A DNA stretch of 18,480 nt. Source: a bacterium. GTDB lineage: Bacteria > Babelota > Babeliae > Babelales > JAUWHS01. The stretch lies in the NCBI GenBank assembly GCA_043818275.1, contig JBDRFY010000041.1, positions 1 through 18,480 on the forward strand. The letters are read 5' to 3'. Numbering within the stretch: position 1 is the stretch's first letter; each line of letters starts with the position of its first letter. This document shows positions 8,793 through 18,480 of the stretch, piece after piece. The notes beneath the pieces are model-generated. The model was given only the letters and a program-made list of their open reading frames with translations. It did not search any database and had not been told where the DNA came from. The position numbers and the translations under genes were made by a program.

Positions 8793-10436
8793 TCAAGACA
8801 TTGGAGGTGGCGCCTCTGGCATTGGAACAAATGACATAGGAGAAGGTGGTACTGGCGGCATATTCATTGGCATTTGAGGTATAGGTTGAGGTGGAATTGA
8901 AGCAAGAGGTTCCATCCCTGTTGACTGAATTGTCATATCCATGGAAGGCGGTGGAGATACTTCAACTTCTTCTTTTCCATCTTCTTCAACCCGTTGTTTT
9001 ACAGCCAAAACAAATTTTTCAAGTCGGGGTAAAAATATTCTGTTATAAATCCCACTTGATACTATTCCTATTTTTTCAAGAACATAACTACCAAAATCTA
9101 AAACTTTGCCAAATGCAAACTCTAATTTATTTCTTATTTCGCCTTTTTCTTCTCTCGCCATCTCCATAGATAATCCAAGTTGCTTCATTAATTCCTGATA
9201 TTTTTTCAATGCCGCTTTTTGTGTTTTAAGTTCAGCTAATAATTTCTTTTTTTCTTCAATCTGCATTTCTTCCTGTTTAATTTGTTTCTTTTTTTCTGAT
9301 AGTTGCCCAATCTTTTTTTCATAACTCATCATCTGATCATCAAATTTTTTAGTCAAATCATCTGCAGTTAAACTTTCTTGTGGGATTGGGGCTATTTGAG
9401 TTGGCTCAACTCCTATTTTATCTATAATGTTCTCTTCTGCTTTAAATATTTTATTAAACCAGTTCTTGATCCAATCAATCATGTCAACAAAACTATCTAT
9501 TACAAAAGCTATTACATCCGCAACTCTTTGTGTAAGGGTTGATTGTATTTTAACCTTTTTTTTTACAACTACCGGCGGCTCAATTTTTTGAGGTAAAATA
9601 ATAGCCGCACTTTTATTTTTAATCACATTCATTTTTGTATTTACATTTTGAATTTTATTCTGAATCTGAGAAACAACATTAGTAAATTCCTGAGAAAAAG
9701 GTCCCTGCAAACTTGCCTGAATTCCCTGAATTTGATCAGCAACCATATTTAACTGATTTAATAATTCCTGAGCTTGTTCAACTGTTTGGGCATTTAATAT
9801 TTGCGCCTTCGTTTGACGCGCGCCTAATTCCTGACCTTTAGCCTGATTGAACTGATTTTCTAATTCATTAATTTTTGCCATCAAATTTTCTTCTTGCTGT
9901 TCAATGGAATCTATATCTATTTTTAATTGTTCTAAAGCCTGCTTCTGTTTATTTATTTCTAATTCTTCCGGTGATACAGGAAGACCAACAGAAACTTGTT
10001 GCATTGTTGATTCAGTAATAATTTGTGGCCGAGCAACAGGTACTGGTGGTGGAGGAACCTGAACAGGAACTACCTCAACAGGTTGAGCAACTAGTTCAAT
10101 TTGCGCAATTTCAACAGGAGCAGAAATAGGTTCTTCAACAGGTGATGGAATTGGGGGCATTTCTGTTTGAGCAATATCAATAGAAGCATATTCTTCAGAA
10201 GGAACATTTTCCGGCAAAGGTAGAAGCAATTCTTCAGCTGGTGGAACATCAACTAAAACTTCAGTCTCAACAGGAACATTTGTTGGCTCAGGAATATCTA
10301 TTTCAGGAGGTGGCAGCAAATCAAATTCTTCAGTTGGTTCTTCAGGAAGAGGAATAACCTCTGCTTCCATTGGCATAGAATTTAAAGAAAAAATAAAAAT
10401 ATTTAAAATAAACAAAATAAATATCTTTTTTAACAT
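8793..10436 (-). CDS. Secreted Pro-rich coiled-coil hypothetical protein A (547 aa)
   Basis: Signal peptide MLKKIFILFILNIFIFSLNS, a Pro/Glu-rich N-terminal region, two coiled-coil segments each followed by an amphipathic helix, and a Pro/Met-rich tail. AAGGAG Shine-Dalgarno. Confidence 0.85.
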   Translation of the reverse strand: MLKKIFILFILNIFIFSLNSMPMEAEVIPLPEEPTEEFDLLPPPEIDIPEPTNVPVETEVLVDVPPAEELLLPLPENVPSEEYASIDIAQTEMPPIPSPVEEPISAPVEIAQIELVAQPVEVVPVQVPPPPVPVARPQIITESTMQQVSVGLPVSPEELEINKQKQALEQLKIDIDSIEQQEENLMAKINELENQFNQAKGQELGARQTKAQILNAQTVEQAQELLNQLNMVADQIQGIQASLQGPFSQEFTNVVSQIQNKIQNVNTKMNVIKNKSAAIILPQKIEPPVVVKKKVKIQSTLTQRVADVIAFVIDSFVDMIDWIKNWFNKIFKAEENIIDKIGVEPTQIAPIPQESLTADDLTKKFDDQMMSYEKKIGQLSEKKKQIKQEEMQIEEKKKLLAELKTQKAALKKYQELMKQLGLSMEMAREEKGEIRNKLEFAFGKVLDFGSYVLEKIGIVSSGIYNRIFLPRLEKFVLAVKQRVEEDGKEEVEVSPPPSMDMTIQSTGMEPLASIPPQPIPQMPMNMPPVPPSPMSFVPMPEAPPPMS

Positions 10437-10454
10437 TCCAATCTCCTTTAAATT

Positions 10455-11090
10455 TTATTGTGCTAAAGCTCTAGCAAATTCTTTTTCCTTTTTTTCTAAT
10501 TCTTTTGTTTGTTTTCCTCGTTCAAATCCTAGTGTTTGGTATGTAATATCCAATTGCTTATCAATATTAGAAAATTGACCATATAAATTTTTTCTTAAAT
10601 TTTCAATTAAATCTAAATTATTTTTGATCCTCTGCATTGTTTGCTCTGCCCGATCTAAAATATTTTGTAACTCCGCAACCCTTGGAGTTTGAATTAAAGG
10701 AGGTGTTGCTTCTGTCAAATTTTTTTGCTTGTCTGGTCCCGCATCGATCCAAGGAAATTGATTTTCAGTAACAGAAGGAACAACTGGAGATGGCGCTACA
10801 GTAGTTGGAGCTCCAGGAATTGTAGGCCCAGCAGAAACAGGTAATTGTTGCGCTGGTATTGGAGCAGAAACAGGAAACTGTTGGGCAAGCATTGGAGCGC
10901 TAATAGGTTGTGGGATAGGCATAGGAACCGGTCCTGGCATTCCCCCGGGAATTGGCGGCGGCATTTGAATATCCTGAGAAAATTCAAGATCACCTTCAGG
11001 AAAATCAGCCATCGGATCTTCCATTCCAGGCATCGCTATTAAATTTTTAAAAAAAATGAAAACCAAAACAGTTAAATTAAAAACTTTCAT
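10455..11090 (-). CDS. Secreted Pro-rich coiled-coil hypothetical protein B (211 aa)
   Basis: Signal peptide followed by MPGM, a Pro-rich region with an 11-aa tandem repeat, and a C-terminal coiled coil. GGGAG Shine-Dalgarno. Confidence 0.85.
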   Translation of the reverse strand: MKVFNLTVLVFIFFKNLIAMPGMEDPMADFPEGDLEFSQDIQMPPPIPGGMPGPVPMPIPQPISAPMLAQQFPVSAPIPAQQLPVSAGPTIPGAPTTVAPSPVVPSVTENQFPWIDAGPDKQKNLTEATPPLIQTPRVAELQNILDRAEQTMQRIKNNLDLIENLRKNLYGQFSNIDKQLDITYQTLGFERGKQTKELEKKEKEFARALAQ

Positions 11091-11182
11091 GAAAGTTCTC
11101 CCGACAAATTAATTTTATTTTACTGAAAATAAATATTATCAGGAGTTTGTTTGAGAAATCAATTCTTTAAAAAAGCAATGGT

Positions 11183-12535
11183 TTAAAACATAGGCTCTTG
11201 AGAAAGTTGTGATATATCTTTAGGTGTTTCTGGTATAGGCATCACCGGTTGAGCAACAGGTATTACTTGTTGCGGTTCAGCAACTTGTAACTGTGGTAAC
11301 TTAGGTTTTTTAGATTTAACTTTCTGTTGAGATTCACCACTCAGAAAATTAACTATTGTCTTGTACCATTTATAAATTTTTGCAGCCAAATCAACAAAGA
11401 AATTAAAAATTTTGTCCTTTGATTCAGCTTCTTCTTTCTTAACTTCAATTTCTTTCTGAATTTGTTGACCTGCTCTTAATGCATCAAGTTCTTTTAATTT
11501 AAGTTCCTCTAATCTTTTTGCCCGATTAATCACAATAAAACCGTTATTTTCTAAATTAGTAATACCAGATCTCACCTGACTGATTTGAGATCTTATAGAT
11601 GATAAAACAGAATCCATGTTTCTCATTAATGTTGTCTGAACATACTGCTTTGAAACTTTAATCTTTTCTAAAATATTTCCTTTTAACTCATAATAAGCCA
11701 GCCGGGCCTTTTTATCATCAATCATATTCCATATATCGCGAATTAAATCATTAGCTTTTTGCGCATCAAGTTTTGCTATATTAATTTGTTCATCCAATTT
11801 ATTTACACGATCTTGAAGCGATTTATCTAAATCTTCAATAGACTTCATATCCAAATTAAATTGTTCTAAATTATTCTTCATAGATTTAATTTCATCTTCA
11901 ACAATATCAATTTTAACTTCCATCTCACTTGTAACACCTTCATCCTCACCTGTTGCCTTTATTCTTGCAACTTTTTTTTGCCTTCTTTTTTCTAAATAAT
12001 TTAGTAATTCATCAAAAACCGTTTGCATCTCTCCGTACTTAAAACCAATTTGTCTATAAAAATTATCCAATTCATTATCAATAGAATTAATTTTATTTGT
12101 GTAAGAACCTCTAGATTGTTCAATTTGATCAACCAGATCCTGAATTTGATCGTTCACCTCTAAACTGTACTTCAACCATTCTCTTTTTTTTACCCAATTT
12201 CCCTGATTACCAACTGTTTCATCTTGCAACAAAACCGTTTGAGCGCCCATTGAACGCCCGCTATTCATTATTGGCATTTGAGAAGATTGAATTGGCATTG
12301 AAACAGGAACAGACATAGGCATTGGTTCTGGTAGAGGAGGCGGCGGAACTTGCATTTGTGTCATAGGAGAAATAGGCATTACTGGTTGTTCGATAGGAAT
12401 TGGTTGTAACGGCATAGAATTTGGTTGCGGTACATTTTCAATCATTGGCATGCCAGGCATAGAATTAATTTTAATAAAGGATAAAAACAAACTAACAACC
12501 CAAAACAAACCAAATGAAAAACAACTCTTTTTCAT
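11183..12535 (-). CDS. Secreted Pro-rich coiled-coil hypothetical protein C (450 aa)
   Basis: Signal peptide followed by MPGM, a Pro/Met-rich region, GNWVKKREW, a long coiled coil and the amphipathic helix FFVDLAAKIYKWYKTIVNFL. Confidence 0.85.
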   Translation of the reverse strand: MKKSCFSFGLFWVVSLFLSFIKINSMPGMPMIENVPQPNSMPLQPIPIEQPVMPISPMTQMQVPPPPLPEPMPMSVPVSMPIQSSQMPIMNSGRSMGAQTVLLQDETVGNQGNWVKKREWLKYSLEVNDQIQDLVDQIEQSRGSYTNKINSIDNELDNFYRQIGFKYGEMQTVFDELLNYLEKRRQKKVARIKATGEDEGVTSEMEVKIDIVEDEIKSMKNNLEQFNLDMKSIEDLDKSLQDRVNKLDEQINIAKLDAQKANDLIRDIWNMIDDKKARLAYYELKGNILEKIKVSKQYVQTTLMRNMDSVLSSIRSQISQVRSGITNLENNGFIVINRAKRLEELKLKELDALRAGQQIQKEIEVKKEEAESKDKIFNFFVDLAAKIYKWYKTIVNFLSGESQQKVKSKKPKLPQLQVAEPQQVIPVAQPVMPIPETPKDISQLSQEPMF

Positions 12536-14623: not shown

Positions 14624-15265
14624 ATGTTTAAAAAATTATTTTTCATCGCAAGCCTGTTTTTGTTCTCTTCAATTTTTGCAAAAGAAGAAAATCAAAAAAC
14701 TTCCAATGTTGAAGGAACACAACAAGAAGTAAAAATAAAATCAAAGTATTTAGATTATCTTTTGGAATTGTATGCAAATGATAAATGGGGTTTTATGGGA
14801 AAAAAGTTTATTGATGAATTGAACGCGCTATATGACAGACGAAGCGCGCAATTTAAGCAAACCTCTTTCACTATATTGGGAACAACATTAGGTTTAGTCT
14901 TATTAATACTCATTTTAAAATCACAAGAACATCCTGATGTTGAAATGCAATTGTGGGGAGCAGGAGGAGTATTTTTTTTAATAACAGCTCTTATATACAA
15001 GTTAATCATTAAATTAAACACAGATAACAGGAATATAACAATTCTTACAAATTTTCTATTAAAATGGCATTTATATAAAAAGGTAACTCCAGAAGAATTA
15101 CATTTATTTTTTGAAAAATTCATTCAAAAATTAAAAAGAACAAATTTCATATACATAAATTCCCAAGAAGCAAGAGAAATAATTGAAGGAATACAATCTC
15201 AAATTATAAATAACCACTTAAAGTATTATGGGAAACATAGCAAACTCTTCGATTCAACTTATTAA
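14624..15265 (+). CDS. Hypothetical membrane protein (signal peptide plus two TM helices)
   Basis: Signal peptide MFKKLFFIASLFLFSSIFA and hydrophobic segments TILGTTLGLVLLILIL and LWGAGGVFFLITALIY. AGGA Shine-Dalgarno. Confidence 0.8.
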   Translation: MFKKLFFIASLFLFSSIFAKEENQKTSNVEGTQQEVKIKSKYLDYLLELYANDKWGFMGKKFIDELNALYDRRSAQFKQTSFTILGTTLGLVLLILILKSQEHPDVEMQLWGAGGVFFLITALIYKLIIKLNTDNRNITILTNFLLKWHLYKKVTPEELHLFFEKFIQKLKRTNFIYINSQEAREIIEGIQSQIINNHLKYYGKHSKLFDSTY

Positions 15266-15591
15266 TTTTTCTTTTTATCAAATTTTGCATCAAGTAAAAA
15301 GGGATTCTTTGATTTCGAAATTTCATCCCCAATTACTTTTATAATATTACCTAACCGCTCAAAATCTAATATAGTTACAGGATTTTCATCATTCAATATC
15401 TTTTTCAACCACTCCCAATCGTCACAAAAAGAACCAATTCCTGTCTTTATTTCTTTATCATACAATTCATATGGTTTTAAAACAGTCAAATAATAATCTT
15501 CATTAATATCAATTTCACTAAATCCATTTTTTTCAGCCGATGTTAAAATACATTTAAATATTTTTTTTAAATCATTTAGTAATATTTTCAT
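15262..15591 (-). CDS. Putative immunity protein of the upstream polymorphic toxin
   Basis: Small cytoplasmic protein (109 aa) starting 11 nt after the toxin stop, with a GGGAG Shine-Dalgarno. The pattern EDYY...IGSFCDDWEWLKKIL resembles, from memory and not a search, proteins encoded after Rhs-type toxin tips. Confidence 0.65.
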   Translation of the reverse strand: MKILLNDLKKIFKCILTSAEKNGFSEIDINEDYYLTVLKPYELYDKEIKTGIGSFCDDWEWLKKILNDENPVTILDFERLGNIIKVIGDEISKSKNPFLLDAKFDKKKN

Positions 15592-15602
15592 ATCTAAGCT
15601 CC

Positions 15603-16601
15603 CTACTTATTTAATAGAAAATTAATTTTGGCTAATTCACCCTCTTGTTTTAATATATCTTTTTTTAATATTTCAGCTCTATTATTAATTATTTGTTGTC
15701 TAATATTTGTATTTGGAGCATTCTTTAGAAATCCCTTATTATCATATTTATCAGGATTTTTAAGATAAGCTTCCAATTTTTCTTTATGCTCTTGAATTAA
15801 TTTTTCATAAGATCGTTTGGATCTAAGAAGCTCATCTCTACTTTGATTTGCAAGATTACCTTCACCAGAAATATTTTTAAATTTACCGCCTTGATCATCT
15901 TTATCAGAATCCTTGTCATCATCCTTTTTAGGCTTCTTTGGTGGTTCCTGGTTTGGCTGACCGGTTTGTCCCGCAATTTCTTCGTGTTTGCGTTTAAAAG
16001 TTTTTCGATCTTCTGTGTTTGTTGTAATTGTACTTAAATCTTTAAACTTTTCACCTTTAAAAATCAAGCCTGCTAATTTTCTTTTAGGTTGCTGAATGCC
16101 GGTCTTTGGGGTGTAAGTATTTCTTTTAATTACTTCTTTTCTTAGGTTGTCTAAAAATTGTGATTCCTGAGAATCTTCAACCATTCCAAATGGATTTCTT
16201 ACACTTGAAAATGGATCCTTACACTGATCAAAAGGTGAAGCTATTTGCGAAGAAATTGGATCATGTGATTGACCGTCAAACGGCATTCTAATATCTCTGA
16301 ATGGATCTACGGGAACAATATCCTCTCCTCCATTTAAAAATCTATTTAGCGCCTGCTGGGCTAATACACTGCCTGTTTGAGCTAATGTTTCAACTCCAAC
16401 ATTATAAGCAATGCCACCAAAAATTTTTCCAGTTTGTTTTAATGCGCTATCGCCAGCCGGTGTTTTTTCATTTTTTTTACTTGATTCAGGAATTACAACT
16501 TTATTTTTTAATTTTTCATCAACAACTTCTTCGACAACTTCATCAGCTACTTTTTCAGTTGCAACATTTTGCGTAGATGCATCAACGGCTTCTACTGGCA
16601 C
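15603..16601 (-). CDS. Putative polymorphic toxin C-terminal part (xPF repeats, PPKKPKKDDD linker, helical toxin-like tip), possibly a frameshifted continuation of 16634-18433
   Basis: The tip RSYEKLIQEHKEKLEAYLKNPDKYDNKGFLKNAP...RQQIINNR resembles, from memory and not a search, C-terminal domains of Rhs/CdiA-type proteins. GTG start with only AGGA 4 nt upstream. The frame is open back to 16637. Confidence 0.65.
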   Translation of the reverse strand: MPVEAVDASTQNVATEKVADEVVEEVVDEKLKNKVVIPESSKKNEKTPAGDSALKQTGKIFGGIAYNVGVETLAQTGSVLAQQALNRFLNGGEDIVPVDPFRDIRMPFDGQSHDPISSQIASPFDQCKDPFSSVRNPFGMVEDSQESQFLDNLRKEVIKRNTYTPKTGIQQPKRKLAGLIFKGEKFKDLSTITTNTEDRKTFKRKHEEIAGQTGQPNQEPPKKPKKDDDKDSDKDDQGGKFKNISGEGNLANQSRDELLRSKRSYEKLIQEHKEKLEAYLKNPDKYDNKGFLKNAPNTNIRQQIINNRAEILKKDILKQEGELAKINFLLNK

Positions 16602-16633
16602 TTGTTCCTGATTTATTTGATTTTTAAAGAATT

Positions 16634-18433
16634 TTAATTAACCACTTCAGGTTCAACAGGTTCAACATCCTCTTTACCTGTGCCAGTCAAAACGTCTTTT
16701 GTAACGCTTTTAAATATCCTGGTTGTTGTACTGTCTTCAGGTTTTTCTTCGAGGTGTTTTTTCTTAAAATCTTCCAGCTCTTCTCCTACTAATTCTTTGC
16801 CCTTTTCCCCTATTTTTTTAATTTTTGATTTAACCCATTCAACAACTTTACTCTTTTCTGGCTCAGGTTCTTTTTCCTCCTCAACTTTTTTTCCTGCTTC
16901 AACTTTTTCTTTTTCAACAATCACTTCCGGTTTTACAATATCTTCTTTTTCTGATTTTTGTTCAGCGGTAATTTCTGTTTTTTTAGGTTCTTCTTTTGTA
17001 ACTGCAACTGGCAAAATAGTTAAAATATCTTTTTTAGTAATTCCTTCTGGTAAAAAACCAAATATTTTTATCAAATCAATTTCTTCAAACTTTGGAGTGT
17101 GTTGTTTAATGAGATTAACTGATTGTTGAATGAAATTATAAACTGTATTTTGACCATCGACAGAAATAAAAATACTTCGTGATTTTAATGTTTTTTCCAT
17201 TTCAGATTTTGCCAGTCCTATTTCTTCTTTTGCTTTTTGAGTTTTTTCAAAGGCTAATATAACTTCTTTATCATCCCGATCACCCTGAGCCACGAGTTCC
17301 GAACCCCGAACTTGTTGAGGGGTTGAGGAATCGAGGGGTCGAAGGGCATCCTCACCAATTTGTTTTTTATCGTAAAGTTCTTTTGAATACTTTTCTGCTT
17401 CCTGATAAGCCTTTTCAGCTTCCTGCATTTTTTCCTGATACGTTTTGATAAAATTTTTGCCATTAAATGAAATTTCATCGCCATGCAAATCAATAAATTT
17501 TATTGGTTCCGCTGATTCCAAAATTAATTTGTTCGATTTCGGCAAAATATTTTGTCTAACATAAGCCGCAACCAGATTTAACAAATCGTTTGCGTCTTGA
17601 ACGGATAATTCCTGATCATCGGATAATTTTAATAAATCTTTTGGAGTTGTGATTTTTTCTTTATCCCGATCACCCTGAGGAGCATAAGCGTCTCGAAGGG
17701 TTTCTTCAGATTTTATTTCAGGAGGTTCTGGTTTGACAACTATGGGTTTTGTAATTTCTGGTTCTTTAAATTCTTCACCGGAAACTTCACCCACAGGCAT
17801 TTCAGTTTTATCTTCATCTTTGCCTAATAAGGATTCATCCCACGAAGTGAATTCTGTTACATCTCCAGCCTCAAGTATTGCCGCGCCAGCAGTTCCAAGG
17901 CCCGCAAGACCAACACTTGCTGTGCCTAACCCGCCCAAACCAACCATACCTGTTCCACCACCAACAGCCGCCGCTTTGGATTTCTTTGTTGATAAAAGAC
18001 CAGTCGCTTTTCCTGCTACCTGTTTTAAACTGCCCTTTAATCCAGATGCCTCATAACCCTCGACCTGTTCTTTTACAATAGGTTCTAATTCTTTTTTGGC
18101 TTCTTTCAGAATGTTTAACTGATTTTTTTCTTCCTCTGTTCTTTCACTCTCAGTTTTTTTTATAATTGTTTCAATTTGTTGTGTTTTGTCTACATAGTCT
18201 TTAAGTTTTGATATACCTATTTTATAATTTTTCTGCTTCTCTTGCGATTGTTTTGCAATCCATTTTTGCATATCATTATAAACTTTTTCAGCTCGATCTT
18301 CTAATACTTTAATAGATTTCGCTTGTCTTTTTTCAAAAAAACTTGTTATTTTTTTACCTAATAAAAAATTCACTCCACAATTCAAAAACAAAATTATTAA
18401 AAAAAGATACCTAAGTGAAAAAAGCTTATTCAT
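16634..18433 (-). CDS. Secreted protein with a Gly/Ala-rich hydrophobic segment and Lys/Glu-rich regions (putative toxin carrier / N-terminal part)
   Basis: Signal peptide MNKLFSLRYLFLIILFLNCGVNFLLG and the segment AAAVGGGTGMVGLGGLGTASVGLAGLGTAGAAIL (aa 154-187). AGGGGA Shine-Dalgarno. Confidence 0.8.
   Translation of the reverse strand: MNKLFSLRYLFLIILFLNCGVNFLLGKKITSFFEKRQAKSIKVLEDRAEKVYNDMQKWIAKQSQEKQKNYKIGISKLKDYVDKTQQIETIIKKTESERTEEEKNQLNILKEAKKELEPIVKEQVEGYEASGLKGSLKQVAGKATGLLSTKKSKAAAVGGGTGMVGLGGLGTASVGLAGLGTAGAAILEAGDVTEFTSWDESLLGKDEDKTEMPVGEVSGEEFKEPEITKPIVVKPEPPEIKSEETLRDAYAPQGDRDKEKITTPKDLLKLSDDQELSVQDANDLLNLVAAYVRQNILPKSNKLILESAEPIKFIDLHGDEISFNGKNFIKTYQEKMQEAEKAYQEAEKYSKELYDKKQIGEDALRPLDSSTPQQVRGSELVAQGDRDDKEVILAFEKTQKAKEEIGLAKSEMEKTLKSRSIFISVDGQNTVYNFIQQSVNLIKQHTPKFEEIDLIKIFGFLPEGITKKDILTILPVAVTKEEPKKTEITAEQKSEKEDIVKPEVIVEKEKVEAGKKVEEEKEPEPEKSKVVEWVKSKIKKIGEKGKELVGEELEDFKKKHLEEKPEDSTTTRIFKSVTKDVLTGTGKEDVEPVEPEVVN
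17273..17346 (+). repeat. Family-A REP-like element, four-layer nested hairpin, in-frame within the CDS
   Basis: ATCCCGATCA followed by CCCT-GAG-CCAC-GAG-TTCC-GAA-CCCC-GAA-CTTG-TTGA-GGGG-TTGA-GGAA-TCGA-GGGG-TCGA-AGGG. Confidence 0.85.
17663..17700 (+). repeat. Family-A REP-like element, in-frame within the CDS
   Basis: ATCCCGATCA-CCCT-GAG-GAGCATAAGCGTC-TCGA-AGGG, matching the intergenic copy ATCCTGATCA-TCCT-GAG-CCTG-TCGA-AGGA (6586-6614). Confidence 0.85.
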
Positions 18434-18480
18434 TCTTTCCCCTAAACAAAAATAATTAATCCTTATCTGATTTGAAAAAT

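Follow-up and report, generated by a model that had tools for sequence, protein, structure and literature searches.

A likely orphan polymorphic toxin-immunity cassette behind a secreted-protein gene in a Dependentiae genome

Three neighbouring genes on the minus strand

The window studied here is an entire contig of 18,480 nucleotides (contig C41; JBDRFY010000041.1 of assembly GCA_043818275.1) from a bacterium of the phylum Dependentiae (Babelota), whose genome amounts to 1.33 Mb in 92 contigs and is 94% complete. Towards the end of the window three genes follow one another on the minus strand, and we consider it probable, judging from their sequences and those of their relatives, that the second and the third form an orphan polymorphic toxin-immunity cassette lying behind an unrelated gene for a secreted protein. 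An initial annotation, made from the letters of the window alone, had read the same genes as a Sec-exported toxin-immunity system. The features of the locus are the following:

16634..18433, minus strand: 599-residue signal-peptide protein with a Gly zipper, an upstream neighbour and not the carrier (from the open reading frame (ORF) and its paralogues)
16602..16633, minus strand: insertion junction between the stop of the 599-residue ORF and the start of the 332-residue ORF (from the comparison with the paralogue on contig C73)
15603..16601, minus strand: 332-residue ORF with carrier tail, linker and tip, likely an orphan toxin cassette that has lost its 5' part
15936..16523, minus strand: residues 27-222 of the 332-residue ORF, a piece of a genus-specific family of large proteins
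15882..15965, minus strand: Pro/Lys/Asp linker, residues 213-240 of the same ORF, the likely graft point
15603..15872, minus strand: putative toxin tip, residues 244-332 of the same ORF
15592..15602, minus strand: 11-nt spacer between tip and immunity gene, which it couples through GGAG, a sequence resembling a ribosome-binding site
15262..15591, minus strand: 109-residue likely immunity protein
14624..15265, plus strand: 213-residue signal-peptide membrane protein, convergent with the cassette

The three minus-strand ORFs of 599, 332 and 109 residues and the linker at residues 213-240 lie where the initial annotation had placed them. The tip of about 80 residues that it described is indeed present at the C-terminus, but it is slightly longer, the family match extending over residues ~245-332, and the GGAG in the gap agrees with the Shine-Dalgarno site claimed for the 109-residue gene after 11 nt. 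The 332-residue ORF begins with GTG, preceded at a distance of 4 nt by AGGA, and it occupies a different reading frame from the 599-residue ORF; no stop interrupts its frame from 16637 onwards, a position right at the stop of the 599-residue ORF. Neither between the three genes nor elsewhere in window positions 15000-18480 was a terminator-like site found, and promoter-like sites in a scan of the locus remained at chance level.

The signal peptide and Gly zipper proposed for the 599-residue protein are visible on the Kyte-Doolittle scale, where the hydrophobic N-terminus reaches 1.97 and a Gly-rich stretch near residues 164-190 the lower value of 1.26, while on the same scale no hydrophobic segment was found in the 332-residue (maximum 0.78) or the 109-residue protein (maximum 0.72). 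The Rhs/YD, FHA, PAAR, LXG, HINT, CdiA and MafB families of Pfam and NCBIfam gave no match to any of the three proteins at E<=1, in keeping with the carrier's reported lack of YD, FHA, PAAR, LXG and HINT motifs. The proposed Sec export of the toxin is not shown for the window copy: its toxin ORF carries no export signal, and the signal-peptide gene in front of it is in another frame and has a conserved stop.

A mobile C-terminal domain and the gene that follows it

Relatives were sought in a comparison set of 261 genomes of the phylum, in which genomes, contigs and extracted loci are labelled G, C and L, respectively, and the genome of the window is G000. The 332-residue protein found matches in 14 of them, and in 12 of the 13 other matching genomes the match consisted of the tip region alone, placed at the end of unrelated proteins. 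A profile built from 16 phylum tips retrieved 1,098 clusters at 50% identity with E<=0.001 (746 with E<=1e-10). The tip lies within 15 residues of the C-terminus in 149 of the 150 best rows, which, for this count and for the conservation counts alike, were picked by the profile itself.

When 89 of these 150 proteins were scanned, most showed no Pfam family at all; over the cut-off were PT-HINT in seven, RHS_repeat in two, and T7SS_signal, PT-TG, DUF637, DUF4280, eCIS_core and Peptidase_S8 in one each. A scan of species genomes yielded 34 tip loci in Bacteroidota, Pseudomonadota, Planctomycetota, Bacillota and others, and an Rhs core exceeded the cut-off in 12 of the 16 tip-bearing frames scanned there, so the suspected presence of tip homologues at Rhs C-termini is borne out. 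The tip is a mobile C-terminal domain borne by many carrier classes: Rhs, PT-HINT, type VII secretion system (T7SS), PT-TG, haemagglutinin and extracellular contractile injection system (eCIS). The family occurs mostly in free-living bacteria; no relative was found on viral contigs, and on plasmids there were one cassette array, from Cronobacter, and two matches to the partner, both from Streptomyces. A tree of 43 tips is poorly resolved and names no donor (the phylum tips need seven changes, of which the starred branches force only one); the nearest rows to the window tip are a Bacillota tip (59%) and two Dependentiae tips of other families.

The small gene travels with the tip. A homologue of the 109-residue partner, detected by a profile built solely from phylum partners of the tip, stands directly downstream of the tip in 33 of the 34 loci from species genomes, and in 26 of 27 once the seven loci that duplicate seeds are removed; in the lone exception (L062) the tip sits 84 residues from the protein end. 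Within the phylum, a strong tip match was obtained in 13 genomes, each of which contains the partner as well, and four further genomes have the partner without a detected tip. Taken with the C-terminal position of the tip and the Rhs cores, this regular order shows that the tip and the 109-residue gene behave as a pair of the polymorphic toxin-immunity type, as was proposed at the outset, and it upholds the suggested resemblance of both to a pair from Rhs-type loci. The partner domain is also multiplied in tandem double domains and arrays (up to 14 matches in G077 and 12 in G010), and orphan copies of the family sit behind unrelated toxins. Poly-immunity arrays with tandem double domains were seen at L124 (G077:C6), L125 (G077:C1) and L024 (G010:C2), and two of these arrays bear extra C-terminal helical tails that look by eye like tetratricopeptide repeats.

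Neither family answers to a named one in the libraries searched. No profile match was obtained for 16 tips in Pfam or for the window proteins in NCBIfam, nor for 14 partners in Pfam or five in NCBIfam; the Atlas partner clusters share no common Pfam 38.1 family, and Atlas matches were to hypothetical-protein clusters only, with scores <0.9. Searches of a word index with the single proteins returned only the query itself for the partner and one relative for the tip, and the profiles recovered both families. This is likely, from the sequence comparisons, a toxin-immunity family that has no entry in the copies of Pfam and NCBIfam searched, represented in the window by an orphan cassette.

The tip is predicted to form a hairpin in which a short helix and a loop connect two long helices (predicted local distance difference test (pLDDT) 92.8); the inter-helix region has 16 residues and contains a conserved loop. 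In the best 150 rows H272 and D287 are invariant, K275, P283, L292 and R308 are conserved at 99%, and N288 and R301 at 93%; by register, the conserved polar residues would lie near the closed end of the hairpin. The partner is predicted as three helices with a two-strand hairpin (pLDDT 89.4), and its conserved residues are D32, Y34 and G53. The isoelectric point (pI) of the tip is 9.5 and that of the partner 5.2. Sequence and fold searches of the PDB returned nothing significant for either protein.

Origin of the cassette and toxin carriers of the phylum

The front of the 332-residue ORF corresponds to the tail of a large protein specific to the genus, with 47-50% identity. Residues 27-222 match the rear of a frame of at least 884 residues in the same-genus genome G119 (contig C64) with 47% identity (E 1e-48), and that frame is related to one at C50:71853-74216 of the own genome, which in turn shares a duplicated segment with a 272-residue ORF behind it. 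Among the 261 phylum genomes this carrier-tail family turned up in the genus alone (2 genomes). The G119 protein stops at the place that matches the start of the window linker, so the linker marks the place at which similarity to the carrier from the same genus ends and the tip family begins, and there the G+C content falls from 35.8% to 25.5% in the tip and 23.9% in the partner (genome 30.8%). Because of this coincidence the linker is the likely graft point, and the tip was likely grafted on there, yielding an orphan cassette. The initial annotation had seen in the linker a tip-swapping junction: in this lineage the break in similarity and the drop in G+C do fall at that place, but other tips on this carrier family are not shown. 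Orphan cassettes of Rhs and CdiA systems are likewise 5'-truncated and consist of a piece of carrier, a tip and an immunity gene. The G119 protein itself (L017, 4350-7004) ends in several tandem repeats, of ~45-55 residues each, of the segment that precedes the linker.

The 599-residue gene had been taken for the carrier, and one could still argue that it delivers the tip, either as a fusion hidden by a frameshift or an assembly error or as one half of a two-part system. The genes are adjacent and co-oriented, are likely covered by one transcript, and the 332-residue frame is open right from the 599-residue stop. However, the family, of which this genome holds four copies (window, C73, C32 and C57), was found in 1 of the 261 phylum genomes and is absent from the other 12 with a strong tip match. 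Its three paralogues lack the tip, one of them being cut by a contig end. The closest, C73, has the same C-terminus and the same stop without a tip, which speaks against a frameshift or assembly error joining the two ORFs; the front of the 332-residue ORF belongs to another family, and the sequence at the stop shows no slippery run. In addition, the N-terminus of the paralogues varies and their rear agrees, the reverse of what a toxin carrier displays. We therefore reject the 599-residue gene as the carrier, and delivery by it in any form is the most improbable of the readings considered here. The secreted family is possibly a host-directed effector. In three paralogues (C73, C32 and C57) an ankyrin-like gene precedes it.

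Similarity to C73 runs for ~25 nt past the stop and breaks off in C73's bidirectional terminator-like hairpin, within its first arm, after which the window runs into the AGGA and the GTG start. The simplest reading is that an insertion removed the terminator behind the 599-residue gene, the direction of the event being our inference. If recombination indeed replaced that terminator, the cassette is probably co-transcribed with the 599-residue gene. Contigs of four public runs offered short pieces only, and none of those listed spans the junction.

Elsewhere in the phylum the same tip is found on complete carriers. In G131 a signal-peptide protein of 1,001 residues bears the tip and is accompanied by the partner, and behind it lie cassettes with one recurring junction and with different tips at their ends, of which one is an EndoU; in G162 an array holds the tip family beside Ntox17 and Imm50. 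The helical carriers of the phylum have no Pfam match, and there are further unrelated families among them. The undescribed, lineage-specific delivery class suggested initially thus has a counterpart, since Pfam-less carriers of this kind do exist in the phylum, but they are proteins other than the one proposed. Cassette arrays with a repeated junction peptide were noted at L018 (G131:C23), L021 (G162:C40) and L022 (G134:C19); some of their tips, without a Pfam match, we take to be restriction-endonuclease-like from their motifs.

A second group of carriers is built around HINT domains. A profile made from nine phylum carriers and searched against the 261 genomes gave 285 matches in 111 of them; some of these matches are inteins, for example that of GyrB in the own genome (a GyrB-like frame with an intein-type HINT domain at G000:C13:2119-5070). 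The 30 HINT loci listed (L129-L158) hold 32 HINT frames, mostly with a hydrophobic leader, and in 29 the next gene is closely coupled. Most of the domains inspected lie directly behind the signal peptide, begin with Gly rather than Cys and end in His-Asn. The 33 C-termini compared (31 from the listed loci, together with the own C21 and GyrB) form 16 clusters, of which the five-member cluster with the window-type tip represents the seed loci. Among 16 other HINT tips scanned, five were over the cut-off for Ntox21, Ntox35 or Ntox37, and among the partners there is one CdiI_N; on signal-peptide-HINT carriers the window-type tip alternates with these three toxin families. In the own genome the HINT profile matches C21 and C13 only. 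At G000:C21:11162-12103 (minus strand) a signal peptide, a HINT domain and a different tip are overlapped by a 135-residue gene, apparently a second and complete locus of the toxin-immunity type.

One could also argue that the 332-residue ORF is a stand-alone cytoplasmic protein started at the GTG and that the pair, instead of being a cassette kept in reserve, is a selfish addiction module of the toxin-antitoxin type. This would agree with the AGGA in front of the GTG, with the failure to find a terminator-like site between the three genes and with two intact frames. The toxin-first order, the 240 residues of carrier tail and the relatives placed on secreted carriers or in cassette arrays nevertheless make such a module improbable.

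Several observations weigh against the orphan-cassette reading. A full-length carrier for the 332-residue ORF was not seen, both large relatives running off contig ends, and 754 candidates included no longer protein with the segment of residues 50-230; nor was a contig found that continues the C50 carrier. The G119 relative ends without a tip or an immunity gene, and two C50 relatives end in unrelated tails, to which the similarity of the 332-residue ORF is not significant (z 1.5 and -0.9). All three relatives of the carrier family thus end differently and without a recognisable tip or immunity gene, two of them being cut by contig ends, and for this reason the pattern of one carrier with different toxin tips is not shown for this family. 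The assembly is in 92 contigs with 4.2% contamination, and two of the 33 matches to the partner, with E-values of 0.001-0.003, are weak. As to the fold, the best VIA-align match of the tip (Z 9.0) is a generic hairpin, and the searches revealed no nuclease relative of it: only generic helical hairpins were listed, and Foldseek gave nothing at E<=0.001. We nevertheless continue to regard an orphan toxin-immunity cassette as the probable nature of the two genes.

The neighbouring 213-residue family is expanded in the genus, with four copies here and seven matches in G119, and its copies also flank the variable loci of C50, C73 and G119. Further away in the window (8793-12535) lie three co-oriented ORFs of 547, 211 and 450 residues, which encode signal-peptide, Pro-rich, coiled-coil proteins with no family over the cut-off.

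Possible action of the pair and its relation to known systems

Our best guess, which we put forward tentatively, is that the tip is a nuclease whose site is masked by the acidic partner. A nuclease with a mimic inhibitor fits because the tip is basic with invariant or nearly invariant His, Asp and Arg residues and the partner is acidic, as in PT1 and PT7, which are described as crystallised DNases with acidic immunity surfaces in the preprint by Nachmias et al. (bioRxiv 10.1101/2021.10.19.465003). The tip would act as an antibacterial toxin in the cytoplasm, where nucleic acid would be attacked by the residues conserved at the closed end of the basic hairpin (His, Lys, Asp, Asn and two Arg), and the 109-residue protein would bind and neutralise the tip by covering that site. 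Full-length versions in the phylum, built as signal peptide, HINT, linker and tip or as signal peptide, helical carrier and tip, may leave the cell by Sec and a secretin channel, and cleavage at the His-Asn end of HINT would release the toxin part. The own genome encodes three secretins, and VipB of type VI secretion had no match in it (94% complete). For the window copy, the immunity gene might give protection at present, and the carrier tail could provide the homologous stretch by which the tip is grafted onto a complete carrier.

A pore-forming tip is unlikely, as there is no hydrophobic segment. The main alternative to a nuclease, which we also find rather unlikely, is a non-enzymatic plug: the tip, a coiled-coil hairpin whose loop is acidic, would slip into the secondary channel of RNA polymerase as Gre and Gfh1 factors do, or would jam another conserved machine. 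The long two-helix hairpin would suit this, as would a weak profile match to Gfh1 (2etn, E 0.28) that aligns the conserved Tyr-Asp loop and the appearance of Gfh1 (3aoh) at Foldseek rank 40 (template modelling score 0.56, E 4.8). However, neither match is significant, Gfh1 is outside the top 50 VIA-align rows, and the 16-residue inter-helix region with its invariant His and highly conserved Arg looks more like a catalytic site.

The toxin is likely directed at other bacteria, kin among them, that share the protist host. Its main target could instead be the protist itself or the protist mitochondrion, and the immunity gene would then do no more than guard the producer: Dependentiae are obligate parasites of protists with many secreted proteins, according to the portions consulted of two reports (PMC6561590, PMC4378268), and some polymorphic toxin tips also kill yeast, as the preprint states (Nachmias et al., bioRxiv 10.1101/2021.10.19.465003). 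Yet the orphan and multiplied immunity genes (the 14 and 12 domain matches mentioned above) suggest defence against other bacteria, and the tip family belongs mostly to free-living bacteria, so that a host target appears very improbable to us.

What has been delineated is a large putative toxin-immunity family that matched nothing in the libraries searched and whose predicted fold is very simple. Many genomes of a phylum hitherto known for its host-directed effectors and for two toxin-antitoxin pairs carry polymorphic toxins paired with immunity genes. Therefore, the competition of co-infecting bacteria inside a protist cell becomes a testable question. A wider and more speculative reading, possible in our eyes, is that the Dependentiae, obligately intracellular and with genomes of ~1-2 Mb, run a phylum-wide and unreported interbacterial arms race in their hosts, with minimal signal-peptide-HINT toxins and several phylum- or genus-specific carriers that swap tips and hoard immunity genes; the hairpin tip would then stand for a toxin family not yet described, with >1,000 clusters and a new mechanism, whether catalytic or machine-jamming. 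In the sections consulted, the papers on Babela and Chromulinavorax name nothing more of this kind than a type II or Sec route and two toxin-antitoxin pairs (PMC6561590, PMC4378268). Our search, outside which subscription papers fell, found no literature that links Dependentiae or Babelota to polymorphic toxins or to a toxin with an immunity protein. Five tip motifs had no literature match, and there were none in the supplements of PMC12994826, PMC13483458 and PMC3482391 (1,214 characters of the latter).

Several known systems resemble the pair. Like Gre and Gfh1 factors, albeit with weak matches, the tip is a two-helix hairpin with acidic residues at its closed end; it differs from them by its longer loop, by the lack of a Gre C-terminal domain and by a toxin-type gene context, and the matches are not significant. 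It shares with PT1-PT9 and their PIM partners, as presented by Nachmias et al. (bioRxiv 10.1101/2021.10.19.465003), short Pfam-less C-terminal domains, varied carriers and syntenic immunity genes. Unlike the crystallised PT1 and PT7, it has no significant sequence or fold match in the PDB, and the same holds for the partner. The phyletic ranges of PT5, PT6 and PT9 overlap that of the tip family, a comparison made by description only, and the tip family may be one of these PT families.

The polymorphic toxin systems of Zhang et al. 2012 (PMC3482391), as far as the portions consulted describe them, combine a C-terminal tip on varied carriers with a downstream immunity gene, and they include stand-alone cassettes, poly-immunity loci, HINT processing and lineage-specific N-termini behind a signal peptide (MafB-N, APD1/2), a combination that the present loci resemble. 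The same portions argue that most novel tips are nucleases and note immunity genes in the intracellular Odyssella and in chlamydiae. No toxin or immunity motif listed in the tables seen clearly fits the pair, and Dependentiae do not appear in them; the nearest description, compared as such only, is that of Ntox32, which is all-alpha with H, [KR], [ED] and [DE] and has no immunity protein listed (PMC3482391). Neisseria MafB toxins resemble the phylum's versions as signal-peptide toxins with swappable tips, according to the same text (PMC3482391). In contrast to MafB, Rhs and CdiA cassettes, the window cassette is single, lies away from any full-length carrier seen and contains a genus-specific carrier fragment, and MafB, YD and FHA matches are absent from the window proteins. 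Thus the architecture is already known from the work of Zhang et al. 2012 (PMC3482391), and what appears new is the likely toxin-immunity family, without an entry in the libraries searched, and a host phylum for which we found no such report.

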